From Escherichia phage vB_Eco_mar004NP2: DNA of 64,000 nucleotides. The position numbers and the translations under genes were made by a program. The notes beneath the pieces were generated by a model that saw only the letters and a list, made by a program, of their open reading frames with translations, had not been told where the DNA came from and did no database searches. Positions 11,518 to 47,842 of this stretch are shown here, one piece after another. The stretch's first letter is position 1. Every line of letters starts with the position of its first letter. The stretch lies in sequence record OR896837.1; one strand, given 5' to 3'.

Positions 11518-11553
11518 AAGGGGAGGGGGCTATGCTCCTTCCCCTTTTTTGCA
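11518..11553 (+). terminator. rho-independent terminator
   Basis: AAGGGGAGGGGGC...CCTTCCCCTT hairpin followed by TTTTTTGCATTT. Confidence 0.6.
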
Positions 11554-18811: not shown

Positions 18812-18883
18812 AATATACATAAATTTGAGAGAGAAAGTTTCGGATTGATAAGAAAGTCCGAAGCAGAAAAATAAAAATTTTAG

Positions 18884-22907: not shown

Positions 22908-23390
22908 ATGGCTGTAGATAGTAGAGAGAAAGGTAAACGTGGTGAATATCAGGTAAGAGATATTCTACGCGAGCGTACAGGTCTTGAGTGGGAACGTGTT
23001 CCTGGCTCTGGTGCTTTTGGCCAGAGCCACGGACTGAAAGGTGACATCTACCTTCCACCACAAAGCGGACACATTAGTAAATACTGCTTCGAAGTTAAGT
23101 GGTATAAAGATGATAATATATCAAGTAATTTATTTAATGTCGGTGAATCCACTCTAGAGAAGTGGTGGCAGCAATGCTCACGTGAAGGTGAGCAGATGAA
23201 CTCCAAGTCTGCATTAATATTCAAAAAAGACAGAGGACAGTGGTTAATAGCTTTGGATAGCGCAGACCCGATGGTTGACAACTTAATGAGTCGTACCCAT
23301 ATGGTGTTAAATAAGAAAGACATGGAAATCGTAATTGGTTTATTTGAACCGTGGCTACATCATGCATCTGTTGAGGACTTAATTAAATAA
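22908..23390 (+). CDS. PD-(D/E)xK nuclease, putative Holliday-junction resolvase
   Basis: GDIYL...CFEVKW fits a D...E-x-K active-site arrangement; lies between SbcC-like and flap endonuclease genes. Confidence 0.45.
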   Translation: MAVDSREKGKRGEYQVRDILRERTGLEWERVPGSGAFGQSHGLKGDIYLPPQSGHISKYCFEVKWYKDDNISSNLFNVGESTLEKWWQQCSREGEQMNSKSALIFKKDRGQWLIALDSADPMVDNLMSRTHMVLNKKDMEIVIGLFEPWLHHASVEDLIK

Positions 23391-24265
23391 TGAGTAAATC
23401 CTGGGGAAAATTTATTGAAGAAGAGGAAGCTGAAATGGCTTCCCGTCGTAACCTAATGATTGTTGATGGAACTAACTTAGGCTTCCGCTTCAAACATAAC
23501 AATAGTAAAAAACCATTTGCCTCAAGTTATGTTTCCACTATTCAGTCTCTAGCAAAATCTTATTCTGCTAGAACTACAATAGTTTTAGGGGATAAAGGAA
23601 AGTCTGCATTCCGCCTAGAGCATCTTCCAGAGTATAAAGGGAATCGAGATGAGAAATACTCTCAGCGTACGGAAGAGGAAAAAGCGTTAGATGAGCAGTT
23701 TTTCGAGTATTTGAAAGATGCTTTCGAACTATGTGAAACTACATTCCCAACCTTCACTATTCGTGGTGTAGAAGCAGATGATATGGCAGCTTATATTGTT
23801 AAGCTGATTGGGCATCTATATGATCATGTTTGGCTAATTTCTACCGATGGTGACTGGGATACTTTATTAACTGATAAAGTTTCTCGCTTCTCTTTTACAA
23901 CACGTCGTGAATATCATCTTCGTGATATGTATGAGCACCATAATGTTGACGATGTAGAGCAGTTTATCTCTCTGAAAGCAATTATGGGTGATTTAGGGGA
24001 TAATATCCGTGGTGTTGAAGGTATTGGGGCAAAACGCGGGTATAATATTATTCGTGAATTTGGTAACGTTCTGGATATTATTGATCAGCTTCCACTACCT
24101 GGAAAACAGAAATATATACAGAATTTAAATGCTTCGGAAGAATTGCTTTATCGAAACCTAATTTTAGTTGATTTACCTACCTACTGTGTGGACGCTATTG
24201 CTGCTGTAGGTCAAGATGTATTAGATAAGTTTACAAAAGATATTTTGGAGATTGCAGAACAATGA
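23390..24265 (+). CDS. 5'-3' exonuclease / flap endonuclease (FEN family)
   Basis: 291 aa; N-terminal LMIVDGTNL, central GVEADDM and C-terminal H3TH-like GIGAKRG motifs; 291 aa matches the T5 D15 length as I recall it. Confidence 0.9.
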   Translation: MSKSWGKFIEEEEAEMASRRNLMIVDGTNLGFRFKHNNSKKPFASSYVSTIQSLAKSYSARTTIVLGDKGKSAFRLEHLPEYKGNRDEKYSQRTEEEKALDEQFFEYLKDAFELCETTFPTFTIRGVEADDMAAYIVKLIGHLYDHVWLISTDGDWDTLLTDKVSRFSFTTRREYHLRDMYEHHNVDDVEQFISLKAIMGDLGDNIRGVEGIGAKRGYNIIREFGNVLDIIDQLPLPGKQKYIQNLNASEELLYRNLILVDLPTYCVDAIAAVGQDVLDKFTKDILEIAEQ

Positions 24266-24708
24266 TTAAAATTAAATTAACTCATCCAGATTGTATGCCT
24301 AAGATTGGTTCCGAAGATGCCGCAGGTATGGATCTGCGAGCATTCTTTGGTACAAACCCTGCTGCAGATTTACGTGCTATTGCGCCAGGCAAATCCCTAA
24401 TGATTGACACCGGTGTCGCGGTAGAAATTCCGCGAGGTTGGTTCGGTTTGGTGGTTCCTCGTAGCTCTTTAGGTAAGCGCTATTTGATGATTGCAAACAC
24501 CGCAGGGGTGATCGACTCAGACTATCGTGGTACTATTAAGATGAACCTCTATAATTACGGTTCTGAAATGCAAACTCTGGAGAATTTCGAGAGACTTTGT
24601 CAGCTAGTGGTATTGCCACATTACTCAACTCATAATTTTGAAATCGTTGATGAGTTAGAAGAGACTGTACGTGGAGAAGGAGGATTTGGAAGTTCAGGAA
24701 GTAAGTAA
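24262..24708 (+). CDS. dut: dUTP diphosphatase
   Basis: dUTPase motifs AGMDL, PRSSLG, GVIDSDYRG and C-terminal RGEGGFGSSG. Confidence 0.9.
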   Translation: MIKIKLTHPDCMPKIGSEDAAGMDLRAFFGTNPAADLRAIAPGKSLMIDTGVAVEIPRGWFGLVVPRSSLGKRYLMIANTAGVIDSDYRGTIKMNLYNYGSEMQTLENFERLCQLVVLPHYSTHNFEIVDELEETVRGEGGFGSSGSK

Positions 24709-24732
24709 TCTACATATAAAATAAATAATAAA

Positions 24733-24770
24733 CCCCAGTGGATTTTGTCCACTGGGATTTTCTTTTATTG
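24733..24770. terminator. bidirectional rho-independent terminator between convergent early and late genes
   Basis: CCCAGTGGA-TTTTGT-CCACTGGG with T-runs on both sides. Confidence 0.7.
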
Positions 24771-25412
24771 TGATACTAATTGTACCTTTAATTGCTCAAG
24801 CTCTTTCTCTAGATCTTCAATCCGTTTAATAAGATCTTGCACAACATGCATAGTGTCAAGAAGCATTGGAGTTGTATCTAATTCCTTTTGCTCCTGCTCT
24901 ATTCCGTCATCATTATAAAATTTTCTAGTTTTTACATAAAGTGGTTCTATAGTCTCTACTTGCTGAGCAATAACCCCACGTCGGACACGAGATTTTTCAT
25001 CGTTATTATATACAAAGGATTGGAATTCTAATCCTTTTAATACCTCGATGGACTTAGTTGCGTCTATAGCCTTAATATCATGCTTTAAGCGAGAATCAGA
25101 TACAGCATTTAATTGCAAAGTATAGGTTGCTGAAGCACCTGGCCACCAAGAATAAAAATAAATACTATTATTATTCGGCTGAATTTTTAAACGCACACCA
25201 AATTTATTATCATCATCTCCCGCTACCTGCCAACAAGAATCTGCAAATGAGCCTAAGTCATTATGAATTAATCCAAAATGTGCAGATGTCTTATACCCTG
25301 CGGAAGAAGACTGGGAACCGCTCAATATACTATTAAAGTTAAATGTACTACCTATATTGACCTCGTTCTGAGAAAGAGTACCTTGTACCCAGCCAGTCTG
25401 AGACCACGCCAT
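24765..25412 (-). CDS. tail fibre distal segment with C-terminal intramolecular chaperone (S74-like) domain
   Basis: ...NAVSDSRLKHDIKAID... matches the autoproteolytic site and chaperone signature of phage fibres; the frame stays open 5' of the ATG up to 25463. Confidence 0.55.
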   Translation of the reverse strand: MAWSQTGWVQGTLSQNEVNIGSTFNFNSILSGSQSSSAGYKTSAHFGLIHNDLGSFADSCWQVAGDDDNKFGVRLKIQPNNNSIYFYSWWPGASATYTLQLNAVSDSRLKHDIKAIDATKSIEVLKGLEFQSFVYNNDEKSRVRRGVIAQQVETIEPLYVKTRKFYNDDGIEQEQKELDTTPMLLDTMHVVQDLIKRIEDLEKELEQLKVQLVSQ

Positions 25413-25431
25413 GCCAGTAACTAATCTAGCT

Positions 25432-26181
25432 TTAAAACGATCCGTTACAAAATCCCCATTTATCTACAAGCTGGGCGGAATTCGATTTACCGGTAGATTT
25501 ATTGTCTATTAGTAGTTCAGTAGAGTAGGTGCCACCAATAGTAGCTTTAGCTCGTAGTGTACTTACAGCCTCACTACTAGTACCTACTTTATACTCAGAT
25601 AGTACACTCCCGCCATAAACAGTAGTACCAGTATTAGGTTTGACAGCATCACCACTAATAACACTCCACGAAGTCTTTGCAGCCACGAACCCACCAGAAG
25701 CACGGATTACCCAGACACCTATAAAGCTGTTTGGAATAATAGTACCTTTTATTCCATAACGCCCATAAACAGGGTCCGCTAAGTTTGCATCAAAACTAAA
25801 TCCGTATTGGTTATCAGGATTAACTACGGCGAATGATTTAGATGCACCTCCAGGAGCGGCACCTAAGCCGTTTTCACCACCAATCGCCCCAATAAGACCA
25901 AATCTAGATGAATATCTATTAAGCGCTTCTTCATATGCACCAGCAATAGCGCCAGGAAAACTACCAGTAATATTGGGTGCTGCAGCTTCTGATATTGAAC
26001 CAGCTTGACCAGCATCCCCCCCCCCCCCACCGTCACCACGAGCGAATAACCCTTTGATTGAATTTAGTTGCACACCATTACGATCTGGGACGCGGAAAGT
26101 AGTGGTACCATCTCCCGTAGAATATTTCCCACGTTGTCCTACATCTGCTAACCAAACTGAATCATCTATAGCTCCAACCAT
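25432..26181 (-). CDS. tail fibre segment with phage tail-collar-like domain and glycine run
   Basis: DGQLLNRADWPELWAYA...GDGTTTFRVPDRNG is the tail-collar pattern; GGGGG is encoded by a G13 tract; the frame stays open 5' of the Met up to 26340. Confidence 0.5.
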   Translation of the reverse strand: MVGAIDDSVWLADVGQRGKYSTGDGTTTFRVPDRNGVQLNSIKGLFARGDGGGGGDAGQAGSISEAAAPNITGSFPGAIAGAYEEALNRYSSRFGLIGAIGGENGLGAAPGGASKSFAVVNPDNQYGFSFDANLADPVYGRYGIKGTIIPNSFIGVWVIRASGGFVAAKTSWSVISGDAVKPNTGTTVYGGSVLSEYKVGTSSEAVSTLRAKATIGGTYSTELLIDNKSTGKSNSAQLVDKWGFCNGSF

Positions 26182-26240
26182 TTGTGCATACGCCCAAAGT
26201 TCAGGCCAGTCAGCCCTGTTAAGAAGCTGCCCATCAGAAA

Positions 26241-26537
26241 CTACCTCATAAGGTTGAATATACGCACGGCTATCTCGAAGATGAAAATCCCCACCCCGTA
26301 GTTCATAACACCATTCATTGTGGGTCCTACTGTGCCAGTATTAAGTTTGTTCTCCACCCAACGCTTAGTTGCGGCATCATAGTCACTAACAGGATCTCCA
26401 GCAAGAGGGGTAGATCCAATAGGACGCACATTTAGCCATGCTGCACGGTCTGCTAAGTCACTCAGGTTATTATTTTTATTAAGTGACTCATTTTTAAGTT
26501 TTGTAATATCCGTAGGAATTACTGTTTTAGTTACCAT
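26241..26537 (-). CDS. tail fibre N-terminal segment
   Basis: ...DYDAATKRWVENKLNTGT... resembles fibre N-termini; the frame terminates 60 nt before the next fragment. Confidence 0.4.
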   Translation of the reverse strand: MVTKTVIPTDITKLKNESLNKNNNLSDLADRAAWLNVRPIGSTPLAGDPVSDYDAATKRWVENKLNTGTVGPTMNGVMNYGVGIFIFEIAVRIFNLMR

Positions 26538-26546
26538 TATAAAACC

Positions 26547-26825
26547 TTATGCCCATACTCTAAGAGGCTGTTCTAGCTGAACTATAAAAGGCTCGAAGGA
26601 TTCGTAAGTAAAGGATTCATCAAGAATCCTTACATTAATATAATACCCTTCATTACGGATGCATCTAGGTTCCTCATCACCTAGCGGAGAGATTTCAGTA
26701 TAAGTATATCCAATTTCGTCAAGCATTATTTGGTTTTGCAAATTTTCATTAGTATCCCACTCTATTTTTAAGAGAAAATCTTTATATGCTGATTTATCCG
26801 TGAATTTTAGGATTATATCTCTCAT
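26547..26825 (-). CDS. hypothetical protein in the tail fibre locus
   Basis: 92 aa; ATGA start/stop overlap with the upstream fibre gene. Confidence 0.35.
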   Translation of the reverse strand: MRDIILKFTDKSAYKDFLLKIEWDTNENLQNQIMLDEIGYTYTEISPLGDEEPRCIRNEGYYINVRILDESFTYESFEPFIVQLEQPLRVWA

Positions 26826-28879
26826 ACATACTCCTTCATTTGTCTATCAGTTAGTTCCTTATGCCAGATTCTAAAGTTTCTAACGTGCCCGAAAAGATGA
26901 CGTTCGCCCCTAGTTGTTTGTCCTCCAATCCTTATAGTAGCCGTTGATTGTATGTATCTCCATTCCGTTTTTGTTTCGCTTGATATTCTGGCATTACTTA
27001 CACAGCAAGTATTGTAATCACTCTTTACTCTCATTCCCATGATCATCTTTTTTAGTTTTGCATTCTCGTAAACCCTTCTGTTTGATTTACCTATATCGCA
27101 ATAAGGGAAACCATCATTATCGCCTTCGGCAGATCCGAAAGCAAGAATAATAGCCGCTTCGGTTTGATGACCTCTGGTATCAAAAACACGTGGCGCTGCA
27201 CTTGGCGTTATACTCCAGTTTTTATGAGCTTCCACAAGTACTGTAAACGGCAAATTGTAAAGGTTGTTTTTTATTGGTAATGTGACCATATCGCTTGCCC
27301 GTGTTACTGGAGTCTCTTCTGTAATAATAAACGATGAAGCGCACGCCCCGCCTTCAACTTGAGGGGTAGCTACCTGTAAGTACTCTCCACCAGAATAAGT
27401 GCCAGGTGAAACAGGTGGAGCAATTTGGATCTGAGAGCTAACCATATTATCAATAGCTTCAGATTGATATGTAACCTCGAAATAAATCCATCCATTAGAT
27501 TCTTTCTCCGCTCGGGCGGTTATTCTTGCAGCCCCTACTTCCGTTTTTCTAATGGACATATCTGTTATATTAAGATATGCATCTGCTAGATAAAAATATG
27601 CGGATCCGTCATATCTTTCAAATCTTATACGACATTGTATATTAGCACTATCGCTTTTTACACGACATGATGTTGTAACATACTTTTCAGTTCCGGTAAC
27701 ATCGACACCTCTTCCTCCTGAAATCGCAGCGATATTCATTGCCGTATTTGTCCCAATTTTTTCGTCCTTTATTTGAAACCGCCCATAAGTAAATCCAAAC
27801 TCATCAACACCACTTTCTGTTATAGTTACACTTGTTGTAGCTTCCCACTTAGATGGCGTAAGTGAGTTAAGATGATAGTTAGTTCTTTGCCCCTCAATGA
27901 GCAAACCATCCTTTTCAAATCTAGGTTCATTAATCCCCGCAACAGTTAATACACCTGATTTATTAATATATGTCGCAGTTGATGCACGTGTAAAGCTAAC
28001 AATCTTGTCACTGGGCAGTGTTATTTCCTCATCACCGACTGTTATTTTTTTTTTATAGTCTGGCGCAAAGCCGGTGATCATATCTAGAGAATCGTTAAAC
28101 GGTATCCATACATCTGGAAGAGGTTGAATGTCGGGGGTAGAATTAGCAGCAGCTTCTGATCTATCAGCCTCAGTTTTTGAACGATCGGCTTCAGTTTTAG
28201 CAGTATTAGCACTATTAGCAGCATTAGTAGCTTGTTTTCCTGCTTCAGTAGCAGAATTAGCAGCACTAGTTGCAGAATTAGCAGCTTGGTTTTTTAGCGT
28301 GGTAGTTTCTGTTATCGCGCTATTCTTAATGCCTTGTGTGTCTGTTTTTAACTGCGCAACATCTGCCTTTATAGCTGTTGTCTCTGTTACAGCACTGTTT
28401 TTAATGGCCTGAGTATCTGATTTTAGCTGCTCAACATCTGATTTTAAGCCTTGAATAGTAGTTACTGACTGACTAGCTGAAGTTGCGGAACTAGCTGCGT
28501 TATTCTCACTAGCTTTGGCTTTAGTCTCACTAGCTTTGGCTTTAGTCTCACTAGCTTTTGCATTAGTCTCGGATACTTTAGCAGCGGATGCAGATGTTGC
28601 AGCTTGTCTAGCGAATGTTTCTGCTTCATCCCTAAAACCTTTAGAATTGGCAGCAGACGCAGCAGCATTAGTCTCACTAATTTTAGCGTTAGTTTCGCTA
28701 ATTTTTGCAGCCGCAGCAGATTTAGCAGCAGCCTCTATAGAAGATACTAACTCATTAGCAGTAATAGAGCTAATAGAATTTCCAAGAGTTACTGTGTATC
28801 TAGGAAATTTACTAGCAGTAGCTTTAGTATCATCAATATTTAATATTTGTTGTACAATAATCTTAGTAGTTATTGCCAT
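26822..28879 (-). CDS. L-shaped tail fibre protein, proximal component
   Basis: 685 aa; Ala/Ser/Thr-rich repeats (SETNAKASETKAKASE), beta-rich C-terminal domain; position matches the T5 pb1 locus. Confidence 0.6.
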   Translation of the reverse strand: MAITTKIIVQQILNIDDTKATASKFPRYTVTLGNSISSITANELVSSIEAAAKSAAAAKISETNAKISETNAAASAANSKGFRDEAETFARQAATSASAAKVSETNAKASETKAKASETKAKASENNAASSATSASQSVTTIQGLKSDVEQLKSDTQAIKNSAVTETTAIKADVAQLKTDTQGIKNSAITETTTLKNQAANSATSAANSATEAGKQATNAANSANTAKTEADRSKTEADRSEAAANSTPDIQPLPDVWIPFNDSLDMITGFAPDYKKKITVGDEEITLPSDKIVSFTRASTATYINKSGVLTVAGINEPRFEKDGLLIEGQRTNYHLNSLTPSKWEATTSVTITESGVDEFGFTYGRFQIKDEKIGTNTAMNIAAISGGRGVDVTGTEKYVTTSCRVKSDSANIQCRIRFERYDGSAYFYLADAYLNITDMSIRKTEVGAARITARAEKESNGWIYFEVTYQSEAIDNMVSSQIQIAPPVSPGTYSGGEYLQVATPQVEGGACASSFIITEETPVTRASDMVTLPIKNNLYNLPFTVLVEAHKNWSITPSAAPRVFDTRGHQTEAAIILAFGSAEGDNDGFPYCDIGKSNRRVYENAKLKKMIMGMRVKSDYNTCCVSNARISSETKTEWRYIQSTATIRIGGQTTRGERHLFGHVRNFRIWHKELTDRQMKEYV

Positions 28880-29301
28880 TATCTAGTTACCCCATCACTG
28901 ATAAATACTTTACCCTCCATTATACGAAAAGAGCTAATAGCTGATCCTATGACATCTCGTGTCATAATTATATCATAGTATCCTGCAAAACGTTGGCGAG
29001 GGTTATACTTATCTCTCTCTTTGGTAGCTTTTTCACCAATATTATCTACCGCCTCTACAGGTAAACTTATAGCTATAGCACCTTGAGCAGCATCAATAAT
29101 TTTAGTAGTAAAAGATGCCAAAGTTTCCGCGTTCTCATCAAGCCCCGCCTTTATAGTACCCCTTAGGGAATACCCTGTTAAGTTAACAGGGGTATTTGTA
29201 GGTGGATAAGTACTATCATCAACATCTAAGAATTGCATCATTAGACCATAAGGTACTTTTTCATCTATTACTAAGTCTATAACTCTATTTTCAGTACTCA
29301 T
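28879..29301 (-). CDS. tail collar protein (p132-like)
   Basis: 140 aa, between the fibre and baseplate genes, matching T5 p132 by size and position. Confidence 0.45.
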
Positions 29302-29307
29302 TATTTA

Positions 29308-31380
29308 TTACCTTATATGGATATACCCACTATTTAGGTCTATCTTCATCTTGTAGTATGCCTCAGGGTTTACCGATAATGCAGCATTCTTATCATAAAT
29401 GATGTTAACACCGATCTGAGATAAGAAAGCATTTCCTGCTACAATTTTATCTGCCGTCACCGTCCCATTAACAATCATGTTTCCATGGAGAACCATTGCA
29501 GGGTTAACCCAACCAGACCCGTTCCATTGCCTTGTAAATGCTGATTGGGGGGCATTACTATTAAATTCAGTTAATACATCGTATTTAACTGGTGGAGAAC
29601 CGAAGTTACTTTGAAAGAAGGAATTAGCTTGTCCATCATCCCAACCACCTAAACCTGCTATACCTACAGAATACATCCCAGGACCACGTTGTCCATCATG
29701 CCCTATAGTACCTTCAGTACCACTCCACTGAACTACATCCGACCAGCTAGTACCCTCTAATAACCTATTAGTAACTGGATCAAGCGTACCTGTAGTGGTA
29801 TAGATATTTTGTGTCATATCTGTACGGTTAGGTGGAGTTTTTGACCAACCAGGAGGCGGATAATCTTGTTCTAGTGGTTTAGCAGGTAGAGATGTTGCTA
29901 ACTTATAAACAAATACTGTTTGCTTACCTTGCATACCAGTACCCAGATCTACATCGCCATTAGGAGTTCCAATAACTACTCCACTAGAAATACGTAGCAC
30001 ATCACCATCATAACGTATCCATTGTGTGGCGTTACCAATGTCTAGTTTAGCTTTGGCAGAAGTATTATCCATACCCATCCAAATACCGGAGTTATTATCA
30101 CCCCAAGATTTACCTTGAGTGTAAATTGCTGGATTATCCTTACCAGATAAGTTAGTCATGATAAAGTTCGCAGCATTAATATCTCTAGTAATTACTTTAC
30201 CATCAACGTTAACAACACGGTTTATAGGGTCAAAAGAAATAGGTGCTTTTCCTTCTTCATCTAGCAGACCAATGTTAATAGCACCAGTAGCTGCGTCGAT
30301 TAAGAATGTCTGTCTCCAGATTTCTCCATCTTTCATGCTGCCCTTAATAAAGGCATAGTTAACATCAATACCAGTCTCATTGACAAAGCTGTTGTCTAGA
30401 GGAGTATCTTCATTAAGTATAAACGTTACAGGAGCTGATTCTGCTATATCTTGCTTATTTGGTCCCCAGGCAATTGATGATACCTTAAAAGTATGCTCAA
30501 CTTTCCATGGGAATGATATAATCGTTGCGGCTCTGGCAGCACCAACGTTTATCTTTTGAGCTTTAGCCCAGCCAGTCTTAGAATATTCTTCAGAGTTTAT
30601 ATAAGTAACCAGAAATTCACGGACATTAGCACCAGCACCACGTTCCCAGTCCCACTCTATTCTAACATCATATCGTTCCTTACCGTCTGCGATTCGTGCA
30701 GCTTTAAAGTCAATGTTAGTAGGTGCAGTAGGTGGTACGAAATTATAAGCTACAGTGAAAACGCTAGGATATTCATAATAGCCAGATGAGTCAACTGTAA
30801 CACCATCTGGCATAGTAACTTGACCAGATATTCTGATCTTATAGTTGCCAACAGGAACACCACCAAATTTGATAGTAGGTCCCAGTGCTCCTATGTAATA
30901 TTTAACCCATTCACTATCTTCTGATGCAGTACTTTTTAATTCAATAGTGCAGTAACTAGCCTCACCAGCAGTCTCTACAACAACTATTGGAGCACCAACA
31001 CCAACGTCAACGGGTTCTGATTCAGATCTTGCTGCAGTAATTATTGGCTTTTCCTTTGTTCTAAAGTTAGTTTCATTAGAGAGGTTGATACCAATCTTAG
31101 CTTCTAGTAACTCTGAGTCAATAATTGAGTCATAGAAAGCCCCCTGAATCTCATAGGAGGTAGAGGGGGTTAAATTATTAATCATTACGAAGAAAGTATC
31201 TATACCGGTGTAATCACGTCTATCTATACTTTCTCCTATTTTTAACCAAAAAGATCTACCAATAACATCATAATCAGTATAAATGGAGTGCTGGACATAA
31301 GCCAAAGTATATCCAGTCATTATACTATTTAAGACCATTTTGGCTGGTGCATTATTTGAAATCATTAAATGGATGCCCAC
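29308..31380 (-). CDS. baseplate/central fibre protein (pb4-like)
   Basis: 690 aa beta-rich protein; by T5 gene order and size (pb4 about 688 aa as I recall). Confidence 0.5.
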   Translation of the reverse strand: MGIHLMISNNAPAKMVLNSIMTGYTLAYVQHSIYTDYDVIGRSFWLKIGESIDRRDYTGIDTFFVMINNLTPSTSYEIQGAFYDSIIDSELLEAKIGINLSNETNFRTKEKPIITAARSESEPVDVGVGAPIVVVETAGEASYCTIELKSTASEDSEWVKYYIGALGPTIKFGGVPVGNYKIRISGQVTMPDGVTVDSSGYYEYPSVFTVAYNFVPPTAPTNIDFKAARIADGKERYDVRIEWDWERGAGANVREFLVTYINSEEYSKTGWAKAQKINVGAARAATIISFPWKVEHTFKVSSIAWGPNKQDIAESAPVTFILNEDTPLDNSFVNETGIDVNYAFIKGSMKDGEIWRQTFLIDAATGAINIGLLDEEGKAPISFDPINRVVNVDGKVITRDINAANFIMTNLSGKDNPAIYTQGKSWGDNNSGIWMGMDNTSAKAKLDIGNATQWIRYDGDVLRISSGVVIGTPNGDVDLGTGMQGKQTVFVYKLATSLPAKPLEQDYPPPGWSKTPPNRTDMTQNIYTTTGTLDPVTNRLLEGTSWSDVVQWSGTEGTIGHDGQRGPGMYSVGIAGLGGWDDGQANSFFQSNFGSPPVKYDVLTEFNSNAPQSAFTRQWNGSGWVNPAMVLHGNMIVNGTVTADKIVAGNAFLSQIGVNIIYDKNAALSVNPEAYYKMKIDLNSGYIHIR

Positions 31381-34217
31381 TCCACAGACTGTTCTCCATC
31401 ATCCCCTTCAGCCCTAATACGAAAATACAATTTTCTATTTATACCTAGAGCACCGCTGTTCTGGAGAGCAAAGTCTGCCTTATTATATGTTAATAAATAG
31501 TCATAAGTATACTGATTTTCAATACGTACACTTCTTAACATCCTATTTTGCGAATCGTGTATTTCAAGTGTATAAAATATACTCTCTATTATATCTTCTT
31601 CAGGTATTTTATCCCAAGCTAGTTTTACATCTGGGCCAACAAACTCAGTTACATCTCCAGAAGCAGTATTAGTTACCATAAAATTAGATACTACACTAAG
31701 GTTTTTAGCAGAGTTAAGTTCTATAGACAGAGTCACCGGGGAACTTCTTCTACCATTAATATCTACTGCTCTTATCTCAAATATAGCCAGACCTGCTGGT
31801 TCCCCAATTATTTCTTGGATCATACGTTCGTTAGGATTGGTCTCTAACTGTTGTACTATGTAAGGTTCGGCATGGCCTGAGTGCACAATAGAGTAATAAA
31901 CTACATTATTGGTTAGACTCGGAAGCCAGGATAACTCACCATTTTTACCTATAGAACCAACTAAGCCATCAGGTGGCTTAGGAGTATACTTAAAATCTCT
32001 AGGAGGAAGAACGTTGTTACTAATATCTGGTATATCATTACCACTATTATCTATTTGATCAGAGTTGATGAATACATCTTTTCCATACTCCTGTAGAGTA
32101 ACATTTATCTTTCCTTCCCTAGAGTTTTCGACTTCATCTACTAAAAAGTACTTCTTATCCCATCCGTAACGGTCGTATGTAAATGCAATAGCATCATTAG
32201 GCTCAATACCAATGAATTGATATGGTAAAGAAAATGAGAGGGTTCTAGAATACCTAGATTTCTTAAGTTCTCTGTCTGCAAAACTTCTAGCAGTATAGTA
32301 GTTAGTTATATTTGCAAAAGATAATTGTAATTTTTTGTCTAGGTTCTTGTCCTGTTCCTTATACTTGGAGTTATAGAATGTAATGGAATTAGTTTTCCAG
32401 CTAAGGGCTGGATCTACGATAGATGCTTGAACTGAGTTGAATTTATTTCTACCAGTAGTATCTGATAGCTCCAAATCACCGTAAGTATCTAGAAAATTAA
32501 TCTCTAATGGAGTATTAGAGTATTTTTCTACAGTAATCCTGTACTGGCCAGATAAGTTGTTAATAGCCCCACCGTAGGACTCTAATAAACCTTGCACATT
32601 TTTAAATACTGATTCAGATGTATCCAGAATAGTATTCATTTGTACTATTTGTCTATTTTCTGCTAGTGGATCAGTCCACCCAACGTATCTCCAATATGGC
32701 TGCCAAGATACCTGATAGGATTCATCTATAATATCTAAAATAGCTGCTTCCTGTATTAATTGCTGAAGAGGGAACTGATCAATGGTAATATTAGCACCGT
32801 ATCTATCGGAGGTTAAGTAGTCAAGTGTTTGCCAAATACCATTTAAACTAGTACTATTAGCAGTTACTCTACCATCAGAATGATAGACTTTTACTTTTTT
32901 ACCTTGAATTTCAGCACTAACTTCAGGAATCTCAGTCCTATTTTCATTAATAGTGAAGCGCACCACTGCGTATGCAGTATCTAGTAGTTTATACCTAGCA
33001 TCCCAGTACTCCGGTCCATTGCCATTCATATTCTGAAGGTAGAACCCACGTTCTTTCGCTATGTCTACTAATACTTCAGAAGCCGTTTGATCAGCTTTTC
33101 CATGATAAGTCCAAATCCTTATATCACCATTACCATCATTATACTTATATTCCTGACCATGCACAGAAGGACTACTAGAAGATATTCCTGATGCTATTCT
33201 TTGCATGGTGTCTCCTGCTACTTTTTTAACACCGAAACAGGTTCTAGCAGAGCTATCATTAGAGTCCATACAAATCATAGGGTTATCCCCGAAGGAAAAG
33301 TCAAGAAAACCGTCTATCTCCCCTTCAGCAAAGGCGTATACTACATAAACTATATTAGGATTGTGTAGTTCCGTATCCGCAAAAATAGGTATTCCTGGTA
33401 TTTTCTGTACACCATAAACTACTGGTATATACTTAGCAGCAAGGTTAAAATCTATATCTACTTCTTTAGTAACAGTCTCATAATACTTTTTAAGACTATA
33501 GCTTCTAGATAGGCCAAATAGCTTTTTCTTAGACTTTAGCTTGTATCTCTCTTCCTGTACCTGATATTTTGCTAAAATAGAGATACTTTTATTAGCATGA
33601 AAGAACCCATAATCTTCTTGGTACTCAAGTCTTTTAGCCCCGTTAGATGGAACTAATTGCCCTGCTACAACCTCAAGCCCTCTATGAGAAGCATCATCAG
33701 TAAATCTACCGTTAACCCTATCAAAGTCATAGAATTGGTTAGAACAATTCCAAGTAATTGTGGAGGTTCCAACCCCAGAAGTACTAATGTTGTCCTTAAT
33801 ACCCCCACCGGTAATTCTCCCTCTAAAGTATAATAAAGGGCCATTTGTGTCTGGGTCTACAGGTAAAATAGAACCATCCTCTGTAATAATTGCTTGGTGG
33901 ATTGTTACTATTCTATCTAAAAAGGACACACCATTCTGCACTAATTTCAGTACTTCATCCTGCGCTGTACCCGTAATAGTAAAAGATAGACTGCCAATAG
34001 ATAAATCTCTATTTTGTTTATGTGTGCTAATGGACTTAACCTTACCGGCCTGGTACAAAATACCATTATATAGTACATCTCTAAAATAATCAGTTAAATA
34101 AATAAAAGCAGTACTAGTACCAGTAGAGCCAGGTAATTCTAGGGAAATTAGACTAGCAGTTTTTATTCTGCTATTATTTTTTAAGTAGTTTCTAGCACTA
34201 TCTAGTATTTTCTTCAT
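31365..34217 (-). CDS. baseplate hub protein (pb3-like)
   Basis: 950 aa; by T5 gene order and size (pb3 about 949 aa as I recall). Confidence 0.55.
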   Translation of the reverse strand: MKKILDSARNYLKNNSRIKTASLISLELPGSTGTSTAFIYLTDYFRDVLYNGILYQAGKVKSISTHKQNRDLSIGSLSFTITGTAQDEVLKLVQNGVSFLDRIVTIHQAIITEDGSILPVDPDTNGPLLYFRGRITGGGIKDNISTSGVGTSTITWNCSNQFYDFDRVNGRFTDDASHRGLEVVAGQLVPSNGAKRLEYQEDYGFFHANKSISILAKYQVQEERYKLKSKKKLFGLSRSYSLKKYYETVTKEVDIDFNLAAKYIPVVYGVQKIPGIPIFADTELHNPNIVYVVYAFAEGEIDGFLDFSFGDNPMICMDSNDSSARTCFGVKKVAGDTMQRIASGISSSSPSVHGQEYKYNDGNGDIRIWTYHGKADQTASEVLVDIAKERGFYLQNMNGNGPEYWDARYKLLDTAYAVVRFTINENRTEIPEVSAEIQGKKVKVYHSDGRVTANSTSLNGIWQTLDYLTSDRYGANITIDQFPLQQLIQEAAILDIIDESYQVSWQPYWRYVGWTDPLAENRQIVQMNTILDTSESVFKNVQGLLESYGGAINNLSGQYRITVEKYSNTPLEINFLDTYGDLELSDTTGRNKFNSVQASIVDPALSWKTNSITFYNSKYKEQDKNLDKKLQLSFANITNYYTARSFADRELKKSRYSRTLSFSLPYQFIGIEPNDAIAFTYDRYGWDKKYFLVDEVENSREGKINVTLQEYGKDVFINSDQIDNSGNDIPDISNNVLPPRDFKYTPKPPDGLVGSIGKNGELSWLPSLTNNVVYYSIVHSGHAEPYIVQQLETNPNERMIQEIIGEPAGLAIFEIRAVDINGRRSSPVTLSIELNSAKNLSVVSNFMVTNTASGDVTEFVGPDVKLAWDKIPEEDIIESIFYTLEIHDSQNRMLRSVRIENQYTYDYLLTYNKADFALQNSGALGINRKLYFRIRAEGDDGEQSVEWASI

Positions 34218-45693: not shown

Positions 45694-46176
45694 TTAGCCT
45701 CCAGAAACAGTAGGATTAACTGTTACAGCACATGCAGTAGAATCCTTACTTACTTGCTTACTATCTGTTACAGTTACTTTATAAGAGCCGGCATCCTTAG
45801 CTGCTGTAGGCTTAGTATAGGTAGCTCCTGAAGCACCAGGAATAGGAGAACCATCTTTAGTCCATGCATAAGTATATGGACCAGTACCCCCAGTTGCAGT
45901 AACAGAAAGTGTTAATGCTGCTCCCTCTTCAACTGACATGCTCGCAATTAAATCTTTAGAAAGAGTTAATGGTGGAGCCGGAGGAATTGCTTTACCATAA
46001 GCCTCTACAAATTTCTTCCATACTTTACGATTAGTATGCGCAGATGAAAGCCCTAGTTCTCTACGCAGAAAAGCATAGCTAGGAACATATTTATGCGCAG
46101 CAACCGTAGCAAAGAAGATATGAGATTCTGGCAGTTTTTCACCAAAAATGGTCCTCAGACCACTATAATCAATCAT
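45694..46176 (-). CDS. capsid decoration protein with Ig-like domain (pb10-like)
   Basis: 160 aa; TLSVTATGGTGPYTYAWTKDGSPIPGASGATYTKP resembles an Ig-like domain. Confidence 0.5.
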   Translation of the reverse strand: MIDYSGLRTIFGEKLPESHIFFATVAAHKYVPSYAFLRRELGLSSAHTNRKVWKKFVEAYGKAIPPAPPLTLSKDLIASMSVEEGAALTLSVTATGGTGPYTYAWTKDGSPIPGASGATYTKPTAAKDAGSYKVTVTDSKQVSKDSTACAVTVNPTVSGG

Positions 46177-46178
46177 TC

Positions 46179-47390
46179 TTAATCTCCCTCGGTGGAACTC
46201 TTGGGTCTACCACCTTCTTGACCAGATACACCTGTTGCAGAACCAGCGACGTTAGCAGGAATACGGATCTTATTCATCTGCTCATCATCTAAAGGTTCAA
46301 GGTTCAGCTCTGAACGAGCTTCGTTACCGGTTATAATACCATTATTAACCAATGAGGTTAAATGTTTAGCCTCTGCTTCTTTATCTGGTGTTAATGCTGC
46401 GACTTCCTTAGTATTCGGAGTGATCTTATAACCAAAAAAGAAAGTAAGAGAACTAGTCAGTTTGCTCAGCATAGGAATGACAGTCATATAATAGAACAGT
46501 TCGATGTTTGGTCGAATGTTCGCATTATTACCCCCACCAAGCAACACTTGCGGAACACCAAAGGCTAGACAGATAGATTTATTAAATCCTTCAATGTCTT
46601 CCTTAAAGTCTAGATCTTTAAAGGAGGATATTTGGGAGTACGGTTTAGCTTTCATACCACCATCTAGAATCAGGACAGAAGACTGACCAGTACTAGGATT
46701 ATAATCGAGTTGTAATTCTTCTTGTTTACGCTCACGCAATTTCTTGTTCAGGATTTCATCCGTCTCAAGAATAAGACCAATCACGGTTCCGTTATCTAGG
46801 AATTTCTCTTTAAAGTTAAGCATCTTAGAACGCTTTTCAAGAGAATCAATAACAGTAGCAACACGAGATTGTCCAGAAATTTGAGAATTTGTGCCACACA
46901 CGTAACTGTTATCCTTTATGAAGATAATCTCATCTACGCGATAGTCTATCTGATTATTAAATGTAAATTTTTTGATAAACTTATTGGCATCTGCCTCGAC
47001 CTGCATAAGAGCAGCCGGGACATGGTAAAGCGATGTGCCATCCCAATAGATGTATGCACAACCTTCAAAAAGTAGGTCAGTGACTACAAGTCTACGGAAT
47101 GTGCTTATATCCATGAATGGATTAGGTCGTACATTTAAGAGAGTGTCTAGAGTCTTTGTTTTGACGCCATTAGCGTACGTAACAATATTATATTTATCTC
47201 CGACAGTATAAGAACACTCCGCCGCACTATCTATAACCATATTGGCAGTTCGATTGAGAATCTCAATCTTGCTATAGGCTTGTCCAGTGGTAAAAGGCTT
47301 ACGGTTAGTGCGATGACTAACTGGTTCCATGTCTCTTATAATACGTTGACCCGGATTTAGCTTTTCAGTAATCCAGCTTTTAAAACCCAT
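46179..47390 (-). CDS. portal protein (pb7-like)
   Basis: 403 aa, between terminase and protease/capsid genes. Confidence 0.7.
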   Translation of the reverse strand: MGFKSWITEKLNPGQRIIRDMEPVSHRTNRKPFTTGQAYSKIEILNRTANMVIDSAAECSYTVGDKYNIVTYANGVKTKTLDTLLNVRPNPFMDISTFRRLVVTDLLFEGCAYIYWDGTSLYHVPAALMQVEADANKFIKKFTFNNQIDYRVDEIIFIKDNSYVCGTNSQISGQSRVATVIDSLEKRSKMLNFKEKFLDNGTVIGLILETDEILNKKLRERKQEELQLDYNPSTGQSSVLILDGGMKAKPYSQISSFKDLDFKEDIEGFNKSICLAFGVPQVLLGGGNNANIRPNIELFYYMTVIPMLSKLTSSLTFFFGYKITPNTKEVAALTPDKEAEAKHLTSLVNNGIITGNEARSELNLEPLDDEQMNKIRIPANVAGSATGVSGQEGGRPKSSTEGD

Positions 47391-47842
47391 TATAAGAACC
47401 TTGCGAATCCTGATTTTGTTTCAGTCTTGACTTGTGTCTTTTCTTGAGGATTCTGTAATTTGTCTTTCTGCTTTTGAACCCACGCTTTTTGCTTATTAGC
47501 AGAAAATAAAGGAGGTTCTTTTGTGTAAACCTTATGTAATAATTGGTGATGGTGCTGGCACAATGTTACCACGTCCCTAACTAACTCATGCTCATATTTC
47601 TTGTAGAATGCTTCCCTATTTGAAAGGACGATATTCTCATCAGTGAAATCCAGCTGGAGTTCTTTAGCAAATTTTTTTATTAGCTGAGATATAGTATGAT
47701 AATGGTGAAGTTCTAGGTCTTCACTACTACCACATATAGCACAGCAACCATCCTTACTATACCTAGATTTTATACCATCCCTCATTATGGAAATGGCATC
47801 ACGTTTGTACTTAGTATTAGTGGCCATAATCCTCCAATCCAA
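47390..47842 (-). CDS. HNH endonuclease
   Basis: CAICGSSEDLELHHYH...LCQHHHQLLH is an HNH signature. Confidence 0.65.
   Translation of the reverse strand: MDWRIMATNTKYKRDAISIMRDGIKSRYSKDGCCAICGSSEDLELHHYHTISQLIKKFAKELQLDFTDENIVLSNREAFYKKYEHELVRDVVTLCQHHHQLLHKVYTKEPPLFSANKQKAWVQKQKDKLQNPQEKTQVKTETKSGFARFL

Follow-up and report, generated by a model that had tools for sequence, protein, structure and literature searches.

Can the length of a mononucleotide tract switch the lateral tail fibre of a T5-like phage on and off? The question is raised by 13 consecutive C residues at positions 26016-26028 (plus strand) of a 64,000-nucleotide (nt) stretch of phage DNA (sequence record OR896837.1), the whole of which is here called the window. 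The tract lies in the distal lateral (L-shaped) tail-fibre gene, which is read from the minus strand, and an earlier note on this DNA had taken it for a classic slipped-strand phase-variation switch that toggles the distal fibre in and out of frame. The window is a Tequintavirus (T5-like) sequence with about 99.5% identity to Salmonella phage SPLA5b and Escherichia phage vB_Eco_mar004NP2 (mar004NP2 below) over most of its length. Comparison with such relatives leads us to regard the tract, with considerable confidence, as a lineage-specific microsatellite that changes its length by slipped-strand mispairing and that is, in the window, a passenger in a pseudogene.

Tract length varies among near-identical fibre loci

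In the coding sense (minus strand) the tract and its flanks read GGT GGG GGG GGG GGG GAT, and the 13 G residues (G13) code for four of five consecutive glycines and for the first base of the following aspartate (G-G-G-G-G-D, inside '...FARGDGGGGGDAGQAG...'), in keeping with the GGGGG of the earlier note. Its reading of a second run, T10 at 28045-28054, is likewise confirmed: this run (A10 on the minus, coding strand) lies in the proximal fibre gene and consists of lysine codons (TAT AAA AAA AAA ATA; peptide '...DYKKKITV...'). As determined by a homopolymer scan of the 64-kb window, C13 and T10 are the only homopolymers of at least 10 bases, each of them inside a fibre gene. The one remaining run of at least seven is T7 at 47672-47678, and the longest G/C run after C13 measures six. 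At the composition of the window (39% G+C), about 6e-5 G/C runs of at least 13 are expected, and a first-order Markov model yields about 7e-5 C runs of this size; the repeat is thus far longer than chance would produce. T10 is not improbable under the composition model (0.3-0.6 expected). Since A/T runs of at least seven are depleted about 10-fold in the window (about 22 expected versus 2 seen), T10 nevertheless stands out, too, when judged by the run lengths of this genome.

Both tracts are genuine. The Logan contig SRR27112525_10, which an independent k-mer assembler built from run SRR27112525, agrees letter for letter over its whole length with window positions 23031-28528 and contains G13, A10 and both of the additional frameshifts described below, the two assemblies being derived from the same reads. 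Folding of the tract region produced no significant structure (z = -0.95), and a hairpin or attenuator role for the tract was dropped on this ground. Beside the A10 tract (28047-28060), a Gly-to-Asp substitution distinguishes the window (APDYKKK) from all five relatives (APGYKK).

The same fibre allele was gathered from GenBank phages, IMG/VR, ENA metagenome assemblies and Logan assemblies, with a 92-amino-acid (aa) open reading frame (ORF) between the two fibre genes and the dUTPase gene serving as neighbouring anchors for finding relatives. The uninterrupted tract was present in 17 assemblies, which differ from one another by only 0-10 substitutions per 5.1 kb. Its length is G7 in ten of them (including mar004NP2, PMBT29, phA11, IMG/VR UViG_3300045988_054024, ENA OXIW01000060, LIXU21-1, YOKO23-1, ERR5898689 and ERR5908402), G8 in four (ERZ19211315, ERZ19211393, SRR13494487 and SRR13494488), G6 in KS_S14, G10 in SPLA5b and G13 in the window. 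Over 3.6-4.6 kb of fibre locus, no insertion or deletion (indel) other than the tract change occurs in KS_S14, in SPLA5b or in three G8 assemblies; the fourth G8 assembly, SRR13494487, lay outside the fibre-locus indel alignment. Tract length is therefore not uniform across related phages, and the instability foreseen in the earlier note is borne out. At least four independent length changes at this one site, set against about 25 substitutions over 5,113 sites, suggest by rough estimate that the per-site rate is raised here by a factor of hundreds, and the length polymorphism stands far above the background of indels and substitutions among near-identical genomes, as is typical of a contingency locus. 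Scans with the pattern of the tract flanks recovered one locus (G7) from viral contigs and, from metagenome contigs, one true match (G7) together with one chance match; the corresponding scan of genome contigs gave no match.

A different picture was obtained for the sister alleles with an interrupted run, GGGGGAG (GGT GGG GGA), which occur in JLBYU40, Lindwurm, WP85 and PH204. They specify the same peptide, and the length is the same in all four. The A tract of the proximal gene resembles the G tract in its variability: it is A7 (KK) in five relatives and A10 (KKK) in the window, and in ERR5898689 it is A8, a frameshift that splits the proximal gene call in a sequence with 0 substitutions relative to mar004NP2.

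As a control we followed the remaining long run of the window, which is A7 in the coding sense of the nicking-endonuclease gene (47672-47678). Located via the neighbouring gene, it proved to be A7 in 10 of 10 assemblies, and hence these assemblies do not generally miscount 7-nt runs. Look-up of the exact protein encoded by this gene was rejected as a control, being circular, as frameshifted copies cannot be found in this manner; look-up by the portal protein returned only the window's own sample, and the valid control was obtained through the upstream neighbour. The ORF with the T7 run (47390-47827) encodes a homologue of the T5 nicking endonuclease (PF26848), and over 100 blocks of the public collection hold exactly this protein sequence.

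The length changes have clear consequences for the reading frame. G6 and G8 coincide with split or shortened calls of the distal gene, and in simulations every tract length other than 3n+1 led to a stop after 20 or 52 codons. Changes in length thus shift the gene between a translatable and a truncated state in relatives, where the toggling claimed by the earlier note holds for G6 and G8; in the window the claim does not apply, as an upstream frameshift has already disrupted the gene. In the G8 variants (L051, L054, L057, L060, L062 and L065) an ORF of 421-422 aa is called from a GTG immediately 5' of the tract (equivalent to about 26030-26040 of the window), and from the sequence a re-initiated C-terminal product without the attachment region is conceivable.

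The position of the tract within the fibre is also informative. The spacing from the invariant RG to the PN/PD motif amounts to 14-21 residues in homologues and to 19 in the window. Nucleotide similarity to many unrelated coliphage fibre genes (NJ01, EP335, LAMP, bob, DT571/2 and others) breaks off precisely where the tract begins, at window positions 26026-26027, its 5' edge in the coding sense, which places the tract on the junction of a widely common N-terminal module and an exchangeable receptor-binding module.

The distal fibre gene is broken upstream of the tract

Relatives carry the distal gene as one coding sequence of 1770-1773 nt (589-590 aa). Six-frame translation of the corresponding region of the window (24765..26537, minus strand) reveals a frameshifted remnant in three pieces of 98, 249 and 215 aa instead of an intact reading frame. 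The first fragment (26241..26537, minus strand) comprises the N-terminal attachment part and ends in the out-of-frame tail IFIFEIAVRIFNLMR before its stop. The second, a 249-aa ORF (25432..26181, minus strand), contains a collar-like FRVPDRNG motif, G13 and the variable receptor-binding part, the true fibre frame being open from about 26289. The third (24765..25412, minus strand) is the C-terminal part and carries the Peptidase_S74 intramolecular chaperone (PF13884, E = 1.1e-12), a match found in 18 of 20 family members.

When the distal gene was aligned base by base with that of five relatives, four indels emerged, the tract among them, all of which are located in short repeats. The first is a -1 frameshift at 26289..26292 (minus strand), where a run of C5 in the five relatives is C4 in the window, with a stop at 26241. 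The second, a +1 frameshift at 25459..25461 (minus strand; TTT versus TT in relatives), restores the original frame but creates a stop at 25432. In addition, a 3-nt slippage deletion at 26439..26444 (minus strand; TGCTGC versus TGCTGCTGC in relatives) is in frame and shortens AAAW to AAW. G13 keeps the true fibre frame and adds two glycines. In the coding sense, however, the -1 frameshift lies 5' of the tract, and its stop at 26241 precedes the tract. Translation is thus terminated before G13 is reached, and the tract cannot control expression in the window. Here, G13 is carried along, highly unstable, in a pseudogene and is not the operative switch.

Both additional frameshifts are probably real. 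Between 9575 and 64000, where the window was compared with both close relatives, the distal fibre gene is the only coding DNA with window-specific single-base indels; the others are non-coding and affect the T-tail of a terminator at 11550 and a promoter-like AT stretch at 18813. Together with the presence of both frameshifts in the Logan assembly, this distribution supports their authenticity. Altogether, the window displays about 11 specific indels, seven of which fall within the 4.1-kb fibre locus.

By sequence comparison the distal gene is homologous to a characterised lateral tail-fibre protein. Residues 14-582 of the intact homologue match PDB entry 8hqz_d (residues 526-1072 of DT57C LtfA; E = 6e-135), the family profile of the distal fibre matches the same entry with E = 7e-208, and the intact homologue also matches the tail-fibre family phrog_6921 (E = 7e-181). 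A homology search with the 249-aa ORF of the window retrieved two proteins of 47% identity and no near-identical ones. The earlier note describes this ORF as a tail-fibre collar-domain ORF. It is, however, no gene of its own, being the middle fragment of a frameshifted 590-aa gene, and the collar label is weakly supported. On the intact homologue, the Pfam family Collar (PF07484) reaches 14.2 bits, below its gathering cutoff of 24 (E = 0.044), and the match is confined to profile positions 38-54 on residues 139-156 (TTFRVPDRNG motif). A weak match of this kind (E < 0.1) recurs in 14 of 20 relatives, with a best E value of 4.4e-4, and the tract is situated about 15 residues past the matched stretch.

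Origin of the tract and competing explanations

The uninterrupted G tract is restricted to one sub-clade and is separated by a single synonymous A-to-G change from the stable, interrupted form of the sister alleles. No homopolymer longer than seven was found in 30 homologous loci (IMG/VR, 134 kb), in which the GRGDGG motif is written in mixed codons. There is consequently no sign that the tract has been maintained by selection across the family, and the simplest account is that of an accidental microsatellite in a conditionally dispensable gene. The lateral fibres of T5-like phages are required on hosts bearing O-antigen and dispensable on rough hosts (PMC10713586), and variants lacking them can thus rise to consensus.

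We propose that the ancestral allele encoded the three glycines after the conserved RGD by GGT GGG GGA, and that a synonymous change of GGA to GGG gave rise to an uninterrupted G7. From then on, bases would have been gained and lost repeatedly by slipped-strand mispairing during replication of the phage DNA. Tract lengths of 3n+1 (7, 10, 13) only add glycines, one in G10 and two in G13, to a length-variable loop at the module junction; other lengths introduce a stop 20-52 codons further on, and the receptor-binding part is removed along with the S74 chaperone, with loss of the distal subunit and presumably of the fibre from virions. The A tract of the proximal gene behaves alike. On hosts without a shielding O-antigen, where the lateral fibres are dispensable, off-variants could take over a stock or a natural population, and fibre-dependent hosts would filter for in-frame lengths. 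The window has the longest known alleles of both tracts, both in frame, and a distal gene already inactivated by two other small slippage indels.

Several points weigh against this proposal. The four G8 assemblies are only 0-2 substitutions apart and form one lineage, which leaves few independent events: in the G tract about four, in the A tract two. A single slippage event does not usually produce steps of +3 and +6, which would require several out-of-frame steps or rarer slips of 3 nt. Tract lengths were compared between assembly consensus sequences rather than reads; platform-specific homopolymer miscalls are possible in single records such as KS_S14, and the two extra frameshifts could in principle be errors common to both assemblies of the same reads.

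The strongest competitor of the accidental microsatellite, although we consider it unlikely, is an evolved contingency locus in which the distal (G tract) and the proximal (A tract) subunits are turned on and off reversibly and selection favours bet-hedging across hosts or against decoys and defences. It is in keeping with this model that several assemblies, some of them from metagenomes, have an out-of-frame variant as their consensus, that two tracts reside in two subunits of a single organelle, and that apart from these two the genome has been cleared of long runs. The in-frame expansions G10, G13 and A10 could be read as returns from the OFF to the ON state, and there is precedent in the poly-G tracts of Campylobacter phages (Sorensen et al. 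2021, as related in PMC10877375) and in contingency loci of T2 and T4 (bioRxiv 10.1101/2025.10.21.683753). The sub-clade restriction argues otherwise, the sister alleles encoding the same peptide by an interrupted, stable run, and so do the mixed codons and the lack of runs longer than seven in the 30 loci. Moreover, G7 is the modal length (10 of 17 assemblies), the distal gene of the window is dead for other reasons, and simple repeats are, according to the same preprint, rarer than expected in tail-fibre genes. Three of the six features that define a contingency locus are present, namely the repeat, its hyper-polymorphism and its consequence for the frame, whereas conservation fails. The 'classic' phase-variation switch of the earlier note is thus not upheld: the tract belongs to one sub-clade, was born by the synonymous GGA-to-GGG change and is absent from the rest of the family. 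As far as these sequence comparisons go, support for an evolved, reversible and adaptive switch is lacking. A more elaborate version, which we hold to be somewhat less probable still, would make the G and A tracts a two-switch bet-hedging device of one Tequintavirus lineage. Reversible frameshifts would then yield progeny with full, proximal-only or no lateral fibres, and in-frame returns would ratchet the tracts to greater length (7 to 10 to 13, and 7 to 10), raising the switching rate, with the window as the most 'evolved' state.

Selection at the level of the protein appears improbable. Longer poly-glycine loops or an additional lysine could alter flexibility or receptor binding, and the homopolymers would be a by-product of GGG and AAA codons. 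Half of the six derived alleles are indeed in-frame expansions (G10, G13 and A10), and they fall in a length-variable loop where two modules meet. Yet G6, G8 and A8 destroy the protein and hence remain unexplained by selection acting on it, and the gene that bears G13 in the window cannot be translated past 26241.

That the length differences stem from homopolymer miscalls in sequencing or assembly we regard as very improbable. Homopolymers are the commonest sites of sequencing error, the variable sites are the longest runs of the locus, and both assemblies of the window go back to the same reads. On the other hand, a second, independent k-mer assembler arrived at G13 and A10 as well, four assemblies of separate runs agree on G8, the control run stays at A7 in 10 of 10 assemblies, and no gene other than the distal fibre gene has window-specific 1-nt indels despite 24 G/C runs of five and 51 A/T runs of six.

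RNA polymerase and ribosomes are known to slip on long A runs, and a 421-422-aa ORF does start just 5' of the tract in G8 variants, but programmed recoding into two functional products by transcriptional slippage or ribosomal frameshifting is highly implausible, given that the alternative frames end after 20 or 52 codons without a conserved product, that the run is not conserved in the family and that no flanking structure is predicted.

The tract fits mechanistically among the known contingency-type repeats of phages. Poly-G tracts in the receptor-binding genes of Campylobacter phages (Fletchervirus) are hypermutable (Sorensen et al., Cell Rep 2021, as related in PMC10877375). Judging from that account, the likeness to the present locus lies in a poly-G tract within a host-recognition gene and in slippage variants, in frame and out of frame, among close relatives; the difference is that the Campylobacter phage tracts are conserved across the genus and their switching has been shown experimentally, whereas the tract described here is specific to one lineage, goes back to a synonymous change and is documented by comparative evidence. 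Unlike in the Campylobacter system, the host family concerned here is not known for poly-G phase variation.

In T2 and T4, repeats of at least 6 bases in phage ORFs slip at about 1e-4 to 1e-3 per read and cause reversible frameshifts (Gomez, Barrick & Waters, bioRxiv 10.1101/2025.10.21.683753). The repeats that act there as contingency loci measure 6-9 nt and belong to agt and rIIA, and tail-fibre genes are reported to contain fewer simple repeats than expected; in the sections consulted, the repeats described are shorter than G13 and no Tequintavirus fibre locus figures among them. Bacterial contingency loci (Neisseria, Haemophilus, Campylobacter and Bordetella; PMC1891110, PMC2831843) share the slipped-strand mechanism and the ON/OFF logic of the frame. 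Their tracts are conserved, often multiple and selected, and their rates are modulated by mismatch repair; here, in contrast, we deal with a young tract in a lytic phage with its own polymerase. A literature search yielded no description of such a tract in Tequintavirus fibre genes, and the tract is unmentioned in the SPLA5b paper (PMC10949491) and in a paper on a multireceptor cocktail (PMC10972627).

The lateral fibres set the O-antigen types that a T5-like phage can reach. In laboratory mutants of T5 that lack the lateral fibres, loss of the fibre gene is tolerated and accumulates on permissive hosts, by ordinary mutations and not by changes in a repeat tract; the frameshifted distal gene of the window resembles these mutants in that its loss is tolerated. 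If the fibre is knocked out, or its loop lengthened, at high frequency, phage stocks are probably mixtures of differing host ranges. SPLA5b, which has been tested in combination against Salmonella, is one of the phages concerned. The tracts also explain why near-identical phage records annotate the fibre as one, two or three genes, and knowledge of them is useful for annotation as well as for judging the uniformity of stocks of proposed antibacterial phages. Furthermore, the alleles constitute a natural series (interrupted, G6, G7, G8, G10 and G13) in a tractable phage family, by which the relation of repeat length to mutation rate under a phage polymerase could be followed, and which could test whether phage repeats are adaptive or merely tolerated.

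The fibre locus and other differences in the window

On the minus strand, the fibre locus comprises, in this order, a gene for an LtfC-type attachment protein, the proximal fibre gene, the 92-aa ORF and the distal fibre gene. The first (28879..29301, 140 aa) is assigned to the fibre attachment (collar) proteins by a match to PF23926 (LtfC) on the neighbour of identical length in related contigs. The proximal gene (26822..28879) is intact, with 685 aa, and holds the A10 tract as well as 21-nt repeats. The 92-aa ORF (26547..26825) is conserved between the two fibre genes and matches phrog_1361 (E = 1.9e-32). Like the LtfA/LtfB fibres of DT57C and DT571/2 with their LtfC (PMC4728585, PMC10713586; PDB 8hqz), the fibre is a multi-protein assembly with LtfC and a C-terminal S74 chaperone. 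The gene layout, with the 92-aa ORF placed between the proximal and distal genes, is unlike that of DT57C, which moreover has no homopolymer at the equivalent codons (RGDGGAS).

The 21-nt repeats of the proximal gene (28192-28709) encode units of 7 aa in a coiled coil. The gene product measures 685 aa in the window, 796 in mar004NP2 and SPLA5b, 698 in ERZ19211315 and ERZ19211393, and 557 in KS_S14; these differences are in-frame changes in repeat copy number, and the gene of the window is about 333 nt shorter than that of SPLA5b.

Outside the fibre locus, the following differences between the window and its relatives all fall in short repeats. At 1451, an (AT)n repeat is contracted by 10 nt, a comparison that involves SPLA5b only, as mar004NP2 does not cover this position. 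At 11545-11550, a terminator-like hairpin has T6 in place of T5 in its T-tail, and at 18813 one nucleotide is inserted in a TATAAT-like stretch. Two changes preserve the frame: a gain of 3 nt (GCT) at 31976 in the long ORF 31365..34217, which encodes a baseplate hub of the pb3 type, and a loss of 3 nt (CTG) at 45806 in a 160-aa ORF. Finally, in a genome that is otherwise 99.5% identical, the identity with SPLA5b and mar004NP2 drops to about 94%, without any indels, in the segment 36181-40453. This segment corresponds to roughly 22.6-26.9 kb of SPLA5b, spans the tail tube, the chaperones and the start of the tape-measure gene, and from its sequence looks like a recombination patch.

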